A stretch of DNA of 64,000 nucleotides from Candidatus Omnitrophica bacterium UBA6253 (GTDB taxonomy: Bacteria; Omnitrophota; Gorgyraeia; Gygaellales; Profunditerraquicolaceae): the NCBI GenBank assembly GCA_002441245.1, contig DJVP01000008.1:234540-298539 (forward strand), written 5' to 3'. The notes below the pieces were generated by a model. The model ran no database searches and had not been told where the DNA came from. It saw only the letters and a list, made by a program, of their open reading frames with translations. How positions within the stretch are numbered: position 1 is the stretch's first letter; each line of letters opens with the position of its first letter. Positions 7,138 through 64,000 of this stretch are shown one piece after another. The position numbers were made by a program, and so were the translations under genes.

Positions 7138-8574
7138 ATGGGCAGGCAGATAAAAACCCTCTTAATCAATCCTCCGTTTACTACTGAGTCTATATATGGA
7201 AAATTTGCAGGCGCTGGCGCCGACCACGCGCCTTTGTCCTTAGGATATATTGCTGCGTATCTTTTAAAACATGGCAAGGACGTAAAAATTATTGATGCGG
7301 CAAAATTAAAACTGGATATCTCCGGGATATCCAAGATGATCTCTGCTTATTCCCCTGATATCGTTGGTCTGCATACATGCACCCCGAATATTAATACGGT
7401 CAAGCTTTTAGCTTCAGAGATAAAAGATTTATCATCGGATATTCTGGTAATTGCGGGGGGTCCGCATTTTTTATATAATCCGGCTGAAGAAGTCAAAAAT
7501 TCAAAACTGGATATTATCGTTATCGGTGAAGGAGAAGGAACCTGTCTAGAAATAGTTGAGGGCCTGGAGCAAGGTAATTTAGGCCAGTTTATTTCGGAGA
7601 GATCCCCGTGGATAAGGGGGATTGTCTATAAAGATAATAATACCGTAAAGATAAATCCACCGCGAGACCCAATCGTGGATATTGATTCTATTCCCTTTCC
7701 GGCTAGACATCTGCTGCCGCCTTTACATACCTATAGATCTACAATTGCTACTTTCAAGCGCCTGCCTTCTACTATAGTTTTAACATCGCGGGGATGCCCT
7801 TTTAGTTGTATATATTGCCACAATTCGGCACAAAGAATAAAATTTCGCATGCATAGCATAGGTTATGTTATGGAAGAAGTCGATGAATTAATTAATAAGT
7901 ATAAAATCAGGGATATCACGTTTGTCGATGATATTTTTACTGTAGACAGGGGCAGGACTTTTGCGATTTGTAAGGAACTGGCAAAAAGAAAGGACAGATT
8001 GTGTTGGGTCTGTAATATAAAAGTTGGCTTAGTAGATAAAGAAATGCTCAAGGTTTTAAAAGATTCTGGCTGTTGGCTGGTGATGTTCGGGGTGGATAGC
8101 GGCAATCAGGGGATTATTGATACAATGGAAAGAAAGTTTGCCTTGGAAGAAGCAGAGCAGGTGTGTGATTGGTGCAGAGATATTGGTCTGATGATTCATC
8201 CGAACTTTATTATAGGCAATCCAGGGGAAACAGTAGAAGCTATTAATGAGAGTATAAATTTTGCCAGGAAGATATATTGTCATTATCCAGTTTTCATGAC
8301 CATGGTTCCCTATCCGGGGACAAAATTGTGGGACAATCTGCATAGATATGGTAGATTGGCTACTGATAACTTTGACAGTTTTACCTTTGGAAGCGAAAAG
8401 CCTTGTTTTATCCCCTATGGGCTGACGGAAGGCTTAATAATAAAAAAAAGAAAAGAAGCTTACCTGAAATGCTACCTTAATTTTCCTATGGTGTTAAGGC
8501 ATATATGTTCAATAAAATCATTCGAAGATATCAGGCGTCTTTTAAGAGCTTTTAGGGTTTTGATAGGTATATAG
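7138..8574 (+). CDS. class B (B12-binding domain) radical SAM enzyme
   Basis: VIAGGPHF in the B12-binding domain. LTSRGCPFSCIYCHNS is a CX3CX2C motif. Confidence 0.8.
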   Translation: MGRQIKTLLINPPFTTESIYGKFAGAGADHAPLSLGYIAAYLLKHGKDVKIIDAAKLKLDISGISKMISAYSPDIVGLHTCTPNINTVKLLASEIKDLSSDILVIAGGPHFLYNPAEEVKNSKLDIIVIGEGEGTCLEIVEGLEQGNLGQFISERSPWIRGIVYKDNNTVKINPPRDPIVDIDSIPFPARHLLPPLHTYRSTIATFKRLPSTIVLTSRGCPFSCIYCHNSAQRIKFRMHSIGYVMEEVDELINKYKIRDITFVDDIFTVDRGRTFAICKELAKRKDRLCWVCNIKVGLVDKEMLKVLKDSGCWLVMFGVDSGNQGIIDTMERKFALEEAEQVCDWCRDIGLMIHPNFIIGNPGETVEAINESINFARKIYCHYPVFMTMVPYPGTKLWDNLHRYGRLATDNFDSFTFGSEKPCFIPYGLTEGLIIKKRKEAYLKCYLNFPMVLRHICSIKSFEDIRRLLRAFRVLIGI

Positions 8575-40226: not shown

Positions 40227-40498
40227 TTGGTGTAAATTGAAAAGGTTGAAAAGGTAAACTTAGAGTAATCTAAGGACACAAAGCCACGGGTCCTTAAGTC
40301 AAGAAGAAGTCCCAGGGATAGCCGGGTTGCCAATAGCGACGAGAGTTGGAATTGACAACTCGATTTTATTTCAATACTTAGTAAGTAATTTTAAAAAGCG
40401 TTTATTAACTTATGAAGAAAGTGAAAGTAATAAGGTTAATAAAAAGTATTGGGGTAAGGGGAAAGATTTATTTTTTATCTAACACTATTAGGTAAAAG

Positions 40499-43400
40499 AT
40501 GGATAAACTTCAGAAACAGACAGAAGGCCAATTTGAGCAACCAGAAACCAAGCCAGAATTTAAATCTAGCTTTAAGGCTTGGATCCGCGTGGTTGCTTTT
40601 ATTGTTGTAGCGGTCTTCTTGCCAGAACAGGTAGCTCAGGCAGTAGAATATGACTGGCGTATACTTTGGAATAAGCCGGTAACAGGTAGTATAGCTCCCA
40701 GCTATTTAAAAGATCTTTCTGGTATCGATACTGCTCTAGCCATCCGTAATATTCTTAAAGATATAGCAAATAAACCAATAACCGCAATCAAAATATCGTC
40801 CAATCTGACCATAGGTTTAGATAAGCCTCTAGAAATGTCCAATCAGAAGATTGATGAAATCTTCCAATGGTTAAAAGGCCGGCCCTGTGGCTCTAAGGCC
40901 TTATATGATTATTTAAATTATACCGGCTTGAAAGTAACTGAACAAGATATTGCTATACTGGCTTTGACAATAGACATCTTAAATGATGTAGTTAAGCCGG
41001 AAGGCAACCCCGAAGTTATTAAAACTTCATTGTACGCCCTTTCTAAAACCTCTGAGTTTTTTGGCCAAAGGCTTTATTCTGTGAAATTAGACTTAAATAA
41101 CCTGGATAAGAAAATAGATCTGACTCCATTTATTGCGCATGTTAATGGCGACCACTATGTTTTAGTAACCCATATCAGTCAAGACAAGGTTTATTTTAGC
41201 GATAACCATACAGAAGAGTTTTTGCCTAAAGAGAAGTTCTTAAATGAGTTTACTGGTTATGCTTTAATTAGCAAGCCGATGTCAGTGGATTTGGAGATAA
41301 GCGTTAGTCAAGCCAAGGCTGTTTTGGGCAGCGGCAGAAACCCTGGCCGGTACTCCAACAGCGTGAATTGGTCAAAATGGTCCAAGAATATGACTACGAG
41401 TATCCTTGTTAATCTTGGCATGAATATGGTTAGTAGTTCGCTCTCTGGCGGTTGGAAGAATATCCCTAGTAAATTATATGATAATTTTGGATCAAGTATA
41501 GTGAGTGGTGTTAAATCCATGGCTGTAAGCTACGCGGTTCAAAGCTATGTTCAGGGTGTGGCTATGGAGAATAATTGGTCCTCAGATAAGGCTGCTTTAG
41601 TCGGTTCTGCTCTAGGCGGTTTTGCAGCAGGCCTAACTACCTCGATAGGGGCAATGAGCGGTAAACCTTCACTTAAACTTTCTAATTGGACTGGCGGGGC
41701 ACTTGGTAATGCATTTCTTGGGGGTGTGACTACTGCTATTAGCCAGGCTACTGCTACCAGAGTCTACCTGTCTTTATATGATAAGAATGATACGCGAACG
41801 AATGCCACTGCGCAGATAGGTTCTTTGGCTGCAGGGTTGCTTATGATGCAGGCAAGCAAAAGCTTAGTTCCCGGGGCATTTGGTATTGACAGCTCATCTT
41901 TAACCAAATCTAAAGCTCCTTTTAACTTGGGTGATTTTTGGAAAAACAATCGGACAACAATTTTCTCAGGTGTTGGTGGAGCTGCCTTAGGAGCAGCTCT
42001 TTACTCTAATAATCGTGTTGCCGGTGCCTTGATTGGTGCTGGCGTAGGTGCAGGCGCAGGGTATTTGGTGAGTAATCGCGCTGTTGTACTGGATACTATT
42101 AAAAATAATGCCATGCCTATGCTTATCGGAGGGGTTGCAGGAGCAGCTATGGGGGCTTTTACTGGTTCAGATGGTTCAGAACGTGCAATATCTGCTTTGG
42201 CCGGATTTGGATTAGGCGCTACTTCAGGGCTGTTGATCAAGAAATATGATTTTTCCGTAATGGGTGGAGTTAGCGGTGCACTCGCTGGTTATATGTACGG
42301 CGGCGATGAGACGAAAGACCGCTTACGTTCTGCAGCCCTAGGTTTTGTTGGAGGAACAGCAGTGGGTGCTTTTGTTAATATCATTGATGATATGGAGAAG
42401 AGGCCTTATATGGAAAAAGGGCTGAAGTCGCACTTAACTGAGGCTGGAAAAACATCTCCGGATGGAAAAGAGTTCCTAGGCTATGCAGAAGGAAGCGATA
42501 AATTAAAAGAATATGCAAATAGAGAATATAAATTTGAACAAGGTACAAGCTACGGTGACATTATGAAATATATTACCGTAAAATCAGGGGCTATCCTATT
42601 AGAAGAAGGTTTTCGTTCTATGAAGTATGATAAGGTTAAGAAAGAAGGGGAGTCCCGAGGGTTAAAAGATACTGACCTGGATGATTATATTGGCGATGAG
42701 ATGGGCAAATATGAAATATATTATTCCGGCCTGGGAGCCGGATATGAGATTTTAGGTACAACCAGCTATAGCAGTAAAGACAAGTGGTATACCATGCTTG
42801 GTCAAGGTCTTTTGCAGGGTGGGGTTTCCGTTGGTGTGGCAATGTTAAGAAATAAGCTTGTGAATAATTACGGAATAGACCCGGTTACTGCTTCAAATGC
42901 AACTATGTGGGTAAGCGCAGCAGGCCGGGCACTCACCGATACTCTTATTCACGGGGATTCATTTTATTATAATTCAGATGAAAAAACAGGCGAGTTAAAA
43001 GAGAGGCCGGGTTTTGGGGGATATATTCAGCAAGGTACTAACAAAGCGCTGAATTTTGGCTGGGGCGCTAAGGATAAAATGTCCGATGTAATTACTTATA
43101 ATAACTATGTTACGCAGATAGTAAATTTTGGCCAAAGAGCAGCGAATTCGGCAAATGGCGGCTTTGCTGTTGTCTATGGCCAGCACCTGGCGGATTCCTT
43201 CCATTATAGCACAGTGGAAAACAGCCTTGGATTAATAAATAATTCGTATATAGTAGCAAAGATTATTACTGGTCAAGCTTATGAGAGAGTTCGCGGGAAC
43301 ATGTCTGAATTGGCTAGCGGCGCCAAGAGCGATACCGAAGTAGATTTTACTTTGAAGCTCAAGTTGTTTGGTAAGAAGATATTTGAAGATGGCGAGTTGT

Positions 43401-61400: not shown

Positions 61401-64000
61401 GTAATTATAGGTATGCTTATAAAACTGAAGCGAGTGTATTCGTTAAAGTTGTACAAGTATTGGGAATAGCGGTTATTGCCCTGTTGTTGTTCTTTATGGG
61501 TTACAAGTATGTTAGCTATATATCCAGCCAGGACAAAATAGCCCTTAAGACTTTTGATGTTATGCAGGCACATACAAAACAAGACAGGAGCATAAGAGAG
61601 TTTGCAAGGGAGTTCTTCCGCTTGTTTGACAATATCGAGTTTTCCGATGGGTTGGAGTTCGGATTGATTTCAAGCCTGGTGGAGCCGTTAGAGAAGCTAA
61701 AGATGAACAGGAGCCTGGTAATAAAAGAAGCCAATGCTCATAGCATAGATCCTAATCTGCTTGCGGCTATCCTGACAGCCGAAAGGCTTGATATGAACCC
61801 ATTGAAGCGCGCCGCAGATTTTACTATTTTTGTCCGGTCGAAGACTTCAGGCGGCTGGGGCCAGGTAAGGCCTGAAACAGTCAGGTTCCTTATAAGCAAT
61901 GGAAGGATTGATAAAAAGTACGCGGCGTATAGCAGCTACAAGCTCGCTGAGGAAATAAAGAATAATGATCAATTCAATGTAATGTGCGTTGCGGCATATT
62001 TGAAGTTCTTGGTTGATGAGGCAGAAAAGATCCAGGGATCAGGCGACCGTTATGAGTTTATGAAGAAGGTGGCCGCAGGCTATACCGCAGACTGGCGCAG
62101 GATGAAAGAGGGTTTATTACAGCCTCCTTTCGATGCTAAAGAATATAAAGAAAAAACAGGAATTGATTCCAGCCGGGCGCAGGCCGCGGTTTATGCTGAG
62201 CTTGTTGCGGCCTTATATAGGCTAATTGAGAAAAATGACTTAACCGGTACTTCCAGCCCGGTTACAAAATCCGAAGATCCACGCATTAATAATTTAAGAA
62301 GGGATTTGAATTCTGACAACAGGTTAATCCGTACCCGCGCAATTAATAATATAAGAGATTACAATTTAGCGAATATCTTCGTGGAAGAACTGCTTGCTTT
62401 AATCCGTGAGCAGGAGGAAGCGAGCAGGTATAATTTAACCAGCAGGGAAGGCAAGGAATGGTTCCATGTTAAGATGTTCGCGATTCAGGCGCTGGTCAAT
62501 TTAGATGAGAAGGTGATAGGGCGCGCTAAGTTTGAAGAAGTTTTAGGGGTTATTAACAGCCAGCATGGCATTGGAAGCGAAGCCGGATGCGTAAAGGTGA
62601 TGGCGAAAGGCGCGTATCAGTTACTGACTGAAGCCAGGAATGGTACTTCCAGCCCGGTTGCAGCGCAAATTTTGATTGTAGATGACGAAGAGATGCAGCG
62701 TGATTTAGTCAGGATGGTTCTTGAGATGGCAGGTTATAAGGTAGAAGAAGCGGTAAATGGAAAAGAAGGTTTAGAGAAATTTAAGGCAGGAAAGTTTGAC
62801 TTAGTGGTGACGGATAATCGTATGCCTGAGATGTGCGGTACGGTTTTAATCGGGGAATTGCTCAAGATTAATCCTGAATTGCCGATTATATTTATGAGCG
62901 GCACAGAGATAGTAACTGAAACTCAACGCATAAAGAATGTCAGCAAGCCGTATAATATTGGCGTATTTACTAAGAAAGTTGCGGAATTATTAGCGTTGGC
63001 TCAATCTTCCTCTAGCCCTGTGGGCGCCGCGGTTACTACGGTTTTGAAATGGCTGGTTTTAAGGAGCGAACAGACCTCTGGCGTAATTAATAGCAGAGAG
63101 TTAGCGCTGTATGCCGGTATATCCCAGGATGAGGTCGCGAGGCTGGTTAAGCAGGTTAATGATTCAGGCAAGGTCAGGTTAATCTCTAAGGACGCAACGA
63201 ATTGGAGAATAGAGGTGGTTTCCTCCAGCCCGATCTCCCTTAAGAATTCCGGAGCAGAGGAGTTACGCGCGGCGCTAAAGAATTGGGCGGCAAGCAATAA
63301 ATTTGAATTTCTCTTCCAGGATACAGTTTGGCAATTAACTAATCCCGGCATACTTCGTAAGATAGAAAAGGCCGGTGAATTAGCCGGGTTTATTTTATAC
63401 TTTGCAAGCAATTATATATCTATAAAGTCGTTTATTGTTGCCCCGGGCATGAGGGGCCAGGGGATAGGCACAGAGGTTATGAATTTAATTGTCAGCGAGA
63501 ATCCTAATAAGGACATTGTTACTGATCCTTTGAGCCAGGCAGCGGTCAATTTCTATAAGAAGCTTGGATTTAAAGAAGATTTTGGCGGTAATTACGTAAG
63601 GCCTGCCGGAGTAACCTCCAGCCCGGCAGTTGCTCCTGATTTTAAGCATAAATTAACAGAGGTATTAGCCGCGTTAGGGATTAACCAGGAATCAGTGGTC
63701 AATAGCTTTGACAGGGTGATGTTAAGAGGTGAAAGAAACTATTATCCGGATGGGTTATTTAAAGATAATGCAGCGTATTTACAGTGGGTATCAGAGGCAG
63801 TGAGTTTTCTTGCCAGAGACGGCAGGCATTTGCCTATATTGAGGATGCTTATTTCATCGCTTTACCCGGAATTTGATCTATCAAAAATTCCCGGACAAAA
63901 TATGTATGCCTGCCCTGCTAACGCTTTACTTGGCTATATCTTTATGGCCCTTAAGTTTGCACCACGTAATATTGCCGCGCTTGCCTACTATAATGAGAAT
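40499..64000 (+). CDS. giant multi-domain protein, 3'-partial: one open reading frame of at least 7,834 codons running off the window end
   Basis: ATG at 40499 sits directly after an in-frame TAA (40493-40495), with an AGGT SD-like element upstream. I checked frame 2 (positions = 2 mod 3) by hand at the start, 40861, 41101, 41941, 45541, 47881, 54421, 56461-56521, 60541-61380, 61741, 62641, 63361 and 63901-64000 and found no stop. The ORF track lists no frame-2 ORF on the + strand anywhere in 40.5-64 kb, which it would if a stop existed. Only short antisense or off-frame ORFs occur there. Confidence 0.8.
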   Translation, partial: MDKLQKQTEGQFEQPETKPEFKSSFKAWIRVVAFIVVAVFLPEQVAQAVEYDWRILWNKPVTGSIAPSYLKDLSGIDTALAIRNILKDIANKPITAIKISSNLTIGLDKPLEMSNQKIDEIFQWLKGRPCGSKALYDYLNYTGLKVTEQDIAILALTIDILNDVVKPEGNPEVIKTSLYALSKTSEFFGQRLYSVKLDLNNLDKKIDLTPFIAHVNGDHYVLVTHISQDKVYFSDNHTEEFLPKEKFLNEFTGYALISKPMSVDLEISVSQAKAVLGSGRNPGRYSNSVNWSKWSKNMTTSILVNLGMNMVSSSLSGGWKNIPSKLYDNFGSSIVSGVKSMAVSYAVQSYVQGVAMENNWSSDKAALVGSALGGFAAGLTTSIGAMSGKPSLKLSNWTGGALGNAFLGGVTTAISQATATRVYLSLYDKNDTRTNATAQIGSLAAGLLMMQASKSLVPGAFGIDSSSLTKSKAPFNLGDFWKNNRTTIFSGVGGAALGAALYSNNRVAGALIGAGVGAGAGYLVSNRAVVLDTIKNNAMPMLIGGVAGAAMGAFTGSDGSERAISALAGFGLGATSGLLIKKYDFSVMGGVSGALAGYMYGGDETKDRLRSAALGFVGGTAVGAFVNIIDDMEKRPYMEKGLKSHLTEAGKTSPDGKEFLGYAEGSDKLKEYANREYKFEQGTSYGDIMKYITVKSGAILLEEGFRSMKYDKVKKEGESRGLKDTDLDDYIGDEMGKYEIYYSGLGAGYEILGTTSYSSKDKWYTMLGQGLLQGGVSVGVAMLRNKLVNNYGIDPVTASNATMWVSAAGRALTDTLIHGDSFYYNSDEKTGELKERPGFGGYIQQGTNKALNFGWGAKDKMSDVITYNNYVTQIVNFGQRAANSANGGFAVVYGQHLADSFHYSTVENSLGLINNSYIVAKIITGQAYERVRGNMSELASGAKSDTEVDFTLKLKLFGKKIFEDGELLSKAPQQENLKTKIDGIVFNKDEGYRLITNIDKPGEGIYYYETQRESNSSPLPEKNRALTNTDVYAISVPIPGIEDKAYGKLYKGVFEVDYLGQDSNGRASFLGLAGAPGSKVTLDLNTAVLSPALTAKIQPLIAGNHEGKITITTTRDNNITLSFGKAGADNKLVAENTATISRAELAEFKQALAPWRDYRGAGFSEIVAQDKKVSHVNSPTGFLTNGLMVNSSPLELNNVKINGTLSHQIESAKIEMWQSLDNSNKWNIHPLTNLLTVATISGGVSLLPEKADSLYFYKQADRSRFGILLNVQNGIGVNSFFSAANSQEAKVNKPNILDYKYNFFGEGAQSSLFGFNGLTQKSPFGYFAYNYQDSIKVKDELDLLAKEKEPAETPISGELTSTFIQTNGSFDKQTETFKVDNAMIMPGSTLQIELGQDQDGKWRATSLHEADKAKFSNFLTAQLPAKFEKAVKENKLTNYIVEIQRIKPGEYNVNFFKNSADREAIRQIGTNSPLVMKIDEADLNDLVKAGVPIGDNLLFNVQGTINYKRNNEGNYVSDIIYQQKNLEQPALVMPTKATSIEAKAAGVSGGEGVVNVKLFTFNQITYNAEKNSNTFSLYPLALLQGEGTLSSTYLNNMNKTPIDSVFFNIKSPSLAPEMGVIARVTRGTDDTIFHNRNLAPTPTSSGAATSTTQANESAIPTRAPLTDLNVIKTHSDAVIELGKGTNLQMLLGVTEINGVQVWQAQSMAGFIGNTITLQKDTSVVWGETLSYKGKEKDVFATFHIGEEKRDGKLVPIIDRVTSKINFERKDIAIGDKDVTLLGTLQQGKNRKVEQKFEKIKFGDREYGIKMQVNDGFLIKGAQSKFYIIGKGFQNEAKITTEDGRTFTLKAGKSAGISVFDETGKKQVGALTDKGIVFFEIDKIRASMQELAGFFEKSEASGADFDKARNIFGRARKAFNEGDYVNAIDALNKASKEATRQQNKNLMEQLRTQNLIPAGYSLDKDAQNGYKQLAAIVEEYKKNGGPSTVREQVKERLRRDISVLENEQRSLVASSADKTEVDLAARKIAKAKEALGLLESSDPQKTTQLTRRVKDLESAFVSQETKWRNELARNGDMPDQGIWAGIWGAVAVNRDDSIREERDRRAVDLTYARVALIGLTATGAKDLYDLASKINSELKMEDRGTARRHETEMSAVKVDANALSLIMNKKAVVEETFLIKDVGYVTRGYDEKGNPYEVLTELAALKYDGGRYAPKYAVKVIDLESGGHITVKQEAFGRTRVYNDQGGEIMGNVVAKTTQVKENDNVIGNMQKVVTPSGEIKFIFQSKDSSIGTQTVAAKEVIFEQSQVDRMSFNLPNGKELFVAADGKVMNGFEEYNAKNYEAADDVQENTYFRYGNRDMYSGVTFGHFSNSSDLKRDLEIALRSTGTGQISQDRLANVFGDAIETKYISRVNSLAVQAGLNTMDSSSPEYAAVYKRIQRIALGELYREPAVREYMSKTNLAPVAFVDDAITWGSTAKVGGGVGLVVGGTVVAVTGVGSAPGGGMAAAGLTTLGIVGSAAAITTGNALIYNGITGQNISSNILLGDFAVNLVTAGLASWAKVITVGTVAANATRAEIMTAKVLGYAKTAPTIGIITENVVNTGSILYSGEYMSPAGRLGIFATAGMGQYVFASKTAMTIMGVSSAVGIADTIIPLHQYIGVASNITGTVAAPYRGIVRAIGSYYDNPDAAPGWISRVYKNQAAEKGAWVSSFGSGVISSMGWFGVSAAQSFLQARSGSYLMQFTLRPHEPVMSIIHLASILNSDTSGNSKFTMMDGFELAGNFAGGFAGLKGVSLPKTGSLSQTGRINGLIDDLKASNSFFASAVDIAPKMYLGQVGFTIATSAVKSLAGSQSWSSIFNSLSGQTDSLWSSSIGFGVYAKAVVPQVKSIISKSALAKSPITSSLAIGGVSGGMATFIDYANHSISNFFSDKKDSSYSLTRGAIVFATAFLAGSALAYGRSKLASTGKASWLTSEYASYPAITGLSSLAGASAGNTFARDGYQANLWASALVPATLTLMAKISSNMDAAKVNPIESGQAPAFWKTLVNRVNPAGKFERLTVDGKLGGYKWGLNLKGTVPVTAVGLSLLVENVPLPKEYNAWRTVASTTLRTIALIHVGLGLEGKRGGSSGLSAAWYRMKVNGAPDAFLRKASWAKGTWDWSGVASNASVLGSAGALAWLMNSKSISENTKTSLIVASIAALALGMGGYKQSFKSLVKPIWTDNIIAKNGRILKLNEAGKPVRTELTASAFSRFLYSNPVAKVGLSRGAVWGGISTYAVLGPDKLPVVGFEKKHIVVALMATALLGPGIKPGLAQLGRAYNLLKGETTFETVNGKLVIKTAGPGVLAYDIAKTALPTIPSIAIGMAAMPDLQNLVHSLSDTSFNNLLKSTFNLDDVKQQYIQLGCGTEADFQNKSFTQVQAEMMVKQIEVQKAASSNKDEIDKLEDSRKYYSGVVERGETGWNSAFMWQLRANSANEGAKVALWFGPSLYFIKPFLEVGLRRIPVVGDMQAFMGEGMGKKGMGDSLTWFKTDSKLGNVIHGTIGRIESIIMEEQVRENVFDTFFKMPLKQSGFEPASPTDTKRYAFQQQLFENLQESNERSGALSISAMNTRVINVMISQGATLMVAPESSVSNGAEIDAINQDFKNGNSAQALQRLSQLPEGSSVRIHVTTGNGFLPVGLYEFKVENEAEWAQPLQIRAQAETFQQQLVAGQISALELAQIAEGATAVTGNSVGNIAPSINRDAARYTLAQAISADAVPLLVDQQQPGKIIFTDSNNQQNTVTVSAQNLMPFIQERRAYDTNFDAGVRQAHQQYRAQVIFPAQATAPVSNLFNFVNTNSTIATVPSQNLNNQRLDTLRLNTLDASERFYNLHSQMIATNDWLMESDLHRSGRVFGSFTAEGKIDKAAKKLAYENQLHKFGADITSGTQKALVAVQALLGFGLGAQIKQQVTQEKRLTAEAGLREIVKKLDSLKAAKGNLPAYRTALVDTFGFTAENVKKLSDEALQMQYDFHLMALKAQHKQIKSFNKKLVSSRGNLRSLLVADFRQNQANLQELSTLLAEAGVSQDILGADFSAGISKDYKGRNARVFVSENSVVKVFDLSSLPEDARDRARIKIEDRYRRGLNGLSVAGAVTRSGNNLIITQARVTTVAEEMMKLHAAGKLAEMNTLLEKLAQLGQDLSAQGYQWSPATSGNMLDNLGLDDQGNITVVDLSAIQTTANPDDAQAIWVARLKQDAGTYSTERLSASKATINAFDTYFNTHSAMVTRGEQLLAPFVKGNVRIDSSNIVGLNPALTTGVENVVNAAVKKVLGKDSDLRGLQVNFMPFAGDLQFEWDVNADGGLTLSLNPAVLANPELLEAVVEHAFDKRSNRQFAADRALDFMTRLRHVSGGIITAPLINLNSWLTTSQVNRLTFTEIGQRAGDLAQALGLPIDLLTRRLPHTAVGAIVNAFDINNHARQSLNTQFRLRAEAALAPMIRFWAGTNWGQRFDTMDYRAQGISQHAIDPFILSQKTLGEIFELDANGQVIGIKNIDARAQSFTAASQKAVAVRLPALFEETKKSLLKNAQQLGLSTEAQTKLRALTIEQVLGANKGDWANKVQIRIALPEELDHMGFGETKQGSRQIWVNSRFIDLETGEISKELLNDVLAHEATHVIADLIASELTAQTGSPVNTGIAIGQEGNESLVDKIAGNKRSNLGNHLYINLGRLRNIGNAGGFGNVGGGTPGLGDGVGGTAGGVGVNSGASIPEVEPPEIEIPKVEPTKVEEPAPSPVVEETLSSSSSKLNKAIAALAASLIKAKNYVTSFHPVDRLVNLVKGIRNSISNALNARFERIKQQAAETPAVLVPVEQLEIKKVDNQEAVEVLSIADIHGSPIEGQSLTTGIIDANGLTPKYKVEVEDVTYYLSAPYDLGGGRIAVLAFLREGDRFVARTYYRSNSAVEFRYLPNYTYNEELKEIVHYDKGFGEDSLGVPYQVQEALAKVKEQEKLINIEDSAIRDLVFAGTARQKIEGGTYVGFMGRAKIEVPGNFHTGLRNKRGSEEKVSPHQVGFDNPEDAPDYSRLLTTYTTNTNTYGDITVEVFPSKNGLHKYSIFRDSLGRIWFGHVENGAKINSMGIRGNWLDLGDLNTPAFEYAQQADGYGNFDLSKGNYVDMFKNYLSKIPVIQEYMKVRMGASSPVVHEQRSEIIVNALKAFLGASSVNTIGGQGIGKAPGNSSSPIKAIARFMVLPLLAMGLSLAAPSLTIAQSYQPAKQGVVAEAKSINVKQFKGIKIAGFSAEDSTAIVKSLKEINDRAPLFLQLARRAGLEFVSIKGHGLQFTAGQLEGSQVKLYDGNWQLNKDLTGFISHEVGHLVYNKLNSNGQLGEALKAIEKKYGVDEATTGVDSAGRKFMIVFGGKNGVYGGSYEFMNKYNPIPFGSVNTDELAAEIFRMRVKPVAGFEENSFLQELNGVIEEYLKGPSGSSSPIQLPGEDRQGEPVRGQSPALPLVPGQIPVPGVNGGALGAVIGGLSMTTAVASSPIDLAVPVLATGRVNLGNIRAQVPIIDGTVTAHGPPAVNTTISLSKIGREINARGKSGILVVVSSSVVKADAQSATFGNEERGQGAEGASSNIGNAAVKAVRSTDSRVMPGNSIGNKIARIISRITYAQSATSRNGERRQDTKDVSGNKANTAVKAVRSIVPQAADVAADSVISNEIDAENASVPTFPRSVSVSSSPVETNGNGRTLFGRLSAFLSNGRSAKKVLTVEEIFHLLTRLQAQKLYRNQQKRGLDVPEKDNYDMSSQQIKVSVSDRLKEQLEDYSDSRLGKWFNAANLSDTELSSMDIEDVETLLDRGLRRAAELITELGRVSEFKVQEGGLTAADVERIIETKIGGIIDAKIAPIAKLAQEADLKATDARKRTGAEDCLIGAITDKEVREESDRRLRIEAGVEFGPYVVKDLYTGLQIINQVYDEFIAKYEKEGNQKKADALRDEKLAAIKANETMAVDILNKYAGRISILAPLDNNQYHVLQVMSYDAETGEILYVEDNGQGNSTGYGKIVLDKIAKINGEYVFIVQESVVKEAELKDNLLSDEEQKEIKNVGGTGSTGSGSSNGGSSGGAQGGTGSGAAGAGQGGSSPAGAGSGINGLVDDDDYLDNRLSRSSTLYIGSTDPLSAQNVQPESRAPPAGEQAYPSTLTNSSITDASIQKSSQEVYSQSETVLGLVSAAGNNTSTTLDSLTEEQEAAVRLLNRFIRSPIMDNLARREEEDYMVVILDKLLKAIKTRGLDLHGRYFRAARLIAYRFGLPYSSMIQLATAFILLNETDSFIEALKEEQSIRAELAAVNTKGTTEAVEAVSAEPEKTAVNFDLLANIRTILASVSKLIKENINLLPGNVQPASSPVKKLDVVFYSSERADRNGTFSNLLDLARDLGQRVYDLAFRLQQFTNDRPEDLIVVDERGSRLEIISSEEEISEHGVILISGSSADNDEATQENIANSFAKVFPQANRILAPRVPAGARSVFDADAEALVSSQSNDQNAGSLAVQDATTVQAEKEAVNVIGAVDKEVSVNNREVHQAESKIVKEIVKAGNIYQEAKLALAKVLGKVLHVVSEKVLGAIASLKQVASFINGSAHKDGIPFTTTLPVNVANAVVDFTFVIKAANNRFAQQGLVAALKNLEVSSPVEAEREAHVELLKRKSEGIGTAISIKAPPVYSPVKFNAGSVKRVGITKGGTNGNHTENSGNERSNRRVGESVQYKTVTGNERSSNSGINEYEKRLSYETELKGRLYTFNIGKADQAKLGVHPVRAPPYAAFVAKLHNSALSRTFNSNNPLNLNQPHSLSVAGESFAANVVKGGARTLLRGLTLLVTALTTIIGGALCALSRLMRSGLTTSLTSLRTTLPLQPRVKTAAGISGYSSLMMLPVRFMPVTAALTVGKSSSALNASLSVSRLLKQEVLAFQSIELTQNTINEEILASSSPVRDYANKNYLRSGARRNYRYAYKTEASVFVKVVQVLGIAVIALLLFFMGYKYVSYISSQDKIALKTFDVMQAHTKQDRSIREFAREFFRLFDNIEFSDGLEFGLISSLVEPLEKLKMNRSLVIKEANAHSIDPNLLAAILTAERLDMNPLKRAADFTIFVRSKTSGGWGQVRPETVRFLISNGRIDKKYAAYSSYKLAEEIKNNDQFNVMCVAAYLKFLVDEAEKIQGSGDRYEFMKKVAAGYTADWRRMKEGLLQPPFDAKEYKEKTGIDSSRAQAAVYAELVAALYRLIEKNDLTGTSSPVTKSEDPRINNLRRDLNSDNRLIRTRAINNIRDYNLANIFVEELLALIREQEEASRYNLTSREGKEWFHVKMFAIQALVNLDEKVIGRAKFEEVLGVINSQHGIGSEAGCVKVMAKGAYQLLTEARNGTSSPVAAQILIVDDEEMQRDLVRMVLEMAGYKVEEAVNGKEGLEKFKAGKFDLVVTDNRMPEMCGTVLIGELLKINPELPIIFMSGTEIVTETQRIKNVSKPYNIGVFTKKVAELLALAQSSSSPVGAAVTTVLKWLVLRSEQTSGVINSRELALYAGISQDEVARLVKQVNDSGKVRLISKDATNWRIEVVSSSPISLKNSGAEELRAALKNWAASNKFEFLFQDTVWQLTNPGILRKIEKAGELAGFILYFASNYISIKSFIVAPGMRGQGIGTEVMNLIVSENPNKDIVTDPLSQAAVNFYKKLGFKEDFGGNYVRPAGVTSSPAVAPDFKHKLTEVLAALGINQESVVNSFDRVMLRGERNYYPDGLFKDNAAYLQWVSEAVSFLARDGRHLPILRMLISSLYPEFDLSKIPGQNMYACPANALLGYIFMALKFAPRNIAALAYYNEN
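40800..41280 (+). other. papain-like (C39-like) cysteine peptidase-type domain inside the giant ORF
   Basis: QWLKGRPCGSKALYDYL has Gln 7 residues before Cys (Cys codon 40886-40888). ...AHVNGDHYVLVTHISQDKVYFSDN has the His codon at 41153-41155 followed by Asp. The order Cys, His, Asp is as in C39/transglutaminase-like folds. Confidence 0.5.
54437..54451 (+). other. HExxH motif (HEATH) inside the giant ORF, candidate zinc-metallopeptidase site
   Basis: cat gaa gca acc cat, in frame 2. Context: NDVLAHEATHVIADLIAS. Confidence 0.4.
56528..56542 (+). other. second HExxH motif (HEVGH) inside the giant ORF
   Basis: cat gaa gtt ggg cat, in frame 2. Context: LTGFISHEVGHLVYNKL. Confidence 0.4.
57256..57521 (+). 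repeat. intragenic imperfect direct repeat, two copies of ~100 nt with 169-nt period
   Basis: gcccagagtgcaacct and cggctgtcaaggccgtacgcagca recur at 57256/57425 and 57329/57498. The minus-strand antisense ORF 56887-57522 shows the same duplication. Confidence 0.6.
62669..62998 (+). other. CheY-like receiver (REC) domain embedded in the giant ORF
   Basis: ILIVDDEEMQRDLVRMVLEMAGYKVEEAVNGKEGLEKFKAGKFDLVVTDNRMPEMCGTVLIGELLKINPELPIIFMSGTE...SKPYNIG. All canonical positions are present: the DD pair, the phospho-acceptor Asp, Thr and Lys. Confidence 0.7.
63250..63600 (+). other. GNAT-type N-acetyltransferase domain embedded in the giant ORF
   Basis: FIVAPGMRGQGIGTEVMNLIV is motif A (R-G-x-G-I-G). 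AAVNFYKKLGFKED is motif B. Confidence 0.55.

Follow-up and report, generated by a model that had tools for sequence, protein, structure and literature searches.

In the giant open reading frame that occupies the end of the 64,000-nucleotide stretch of DNA analysed here (the window), the borders between modules share a short core, Ser-Ser-Pro-Val/Ile. This is a conserved, lineage-specific motif of four residues found at every module border, and it is this punctuation of the borders, rather than the string of domains itself, that is new. The frame runs free of stops from position 40496 to 64000 (7,835 codons) and is still open at the window's end; residues are numbered here by codon from nt 40496, the Met at nt 40499 being residue 2. 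The encoded protein, of more than 7,800 residues, is a member of the C39-type giant proteins of Candidatus Omnitrophota, and a Tad/Flp pilus cluster lies upstream of it.

From residue 5173 onwards the pattern [GAS][SAT]SSP[VIA] is present at each module border, with 14 sites against approximately 0.17 expected. In the region at the end of the window, from the HEAT-like segment to the GNAT domain, all five borders carry the form [ST]SSP[VIA], which the initial annotation of this region did not mention. The features are as follows:

nt 62252, giant-ORF frame: [ST]SSP[VIA] border motif
nt 62648, giant-ORF frame: [ST]SSP[VIA] border motif
nt 62669-62929 (residues 7392-7478): receiver (REC) domain, PF00072 in Pfam
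nt 63011, giant-ORF frame: [ST]SSP[VIA] border motif
nt 63224, giant-ORF frame: [ST]SSP[VIA] border motif
residues ~7612-7695: GNAT domain, PF00583 and PF13508
nt 63617, giant-ORF frame: [ST]SSP[VIA] border motif

The codons that encode the motif differ between sites, so that selection is at the protein level. The motif is also kept in relatives, and a distant one (P0083) bears it in its own tail.

Two of the bordered modules are genuine members of well-known families, each giving a significant match in Pfam, the profile check proposed in the initial annotation. The CheY-type receiver matches PF00072 with an e-value of 3.4e-19 (69.5 bits against a cut-off of 30.2), and its top PDB match is a CheY (6er7, e = 1.8e-15). 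It had been described as complete, and the acidic pair (D7396/D7397), acceptor aspartate (D7440) and lysine (K7484, followed by Pro) are indeed in place, but the conserved hydroxyl residue is Ser7468 rather than the Thr originally reported. The acetyltransferase core was correctly recognized: matches to PF00583 (e = 1.5e-9) and PF13508 (e = 2.7e-9) each exceed their own cut-offs, motif A is present as R-G-Q-G-I-G (residues 7653-7658), and searches of the PDB and NCBIfam with this region return GNATs exclusively.

The other two assignments, HEAT-like and winged-HTH-like, are plausible but without statistical support. Residues 7257-7384 match nothing by sequence in Pfam, NCBIfam or the PDB, even at e ≤ 10; modelled in isolation they form a seven-helix bundle (pLDDT 72.8), for which Foldseek ranks alphaRep, armadillo and 14-3-3 solenoids first, all with e ≥ 0.34. 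Residues 7510-7576 adopt an H-E-H-H-E-E topology in a low-confidence model, but produce only sub-threshold HTH matches (AbiEi_4, 0.017; HTH_29, 0.11).

What might the border motif do? Some modules that directly follow a border motif start with an export signal. In the window protein these are a signal peptide of the Sec type and a signal anchor; in P0090, a family member from Ca. Gygaella obscura, they are two canonical twin-arginine signals. Furthermore, a C39-like peptidase is encoded in cis, its Cys and His kept in 98% of 132 aligned sequences (that of the window and 131 family members). Together, the motif, the export signals following some of its copies and the conserved peptidase lend real, if circumstantial, support to the earlier suggestion of a polyprotein processed into modules. 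Cleavage is nevertheless putative, and we would stop just short of calling it probable that the tail is a polyprotein with the motifs as its processing sites. The main rival is an uncleaved, membrane-woven chain, in which the motifs would be linkers or sites of modification. The other reading offered initially, that the embedded receiver regulates the activity of the giant protein, is possible. Cleavage points have long been sought in Omnitrophota giant proteins, and Ser-Ser-Pro-Val/Ile is a concrete candidate for them.

The embedding of a receiver, at first considered highly unusual, is not so in this phylum. Among 916 long Omnitrophota proteins PF00072 is found in 105 and PF00583 in 93 (Nielsen & Lui 2026, 10.64898/2026.06.07.730766), and CheY-like receiver, GGDEF, GNAT and HEAT_2 domains are listed for Omnitrophota giants (West-Roberts et al. 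2023, 10.1101/2023.11.21.568195), so that two preprints already record REC, GNAT, HEAT and GGDEF domains in giants of this type and the present string is a further case of a known pattern. The borders differ within the family: those of the HK and REC modules in P0090 carry DNG[ND], whereas the window protein has the SSP motif.

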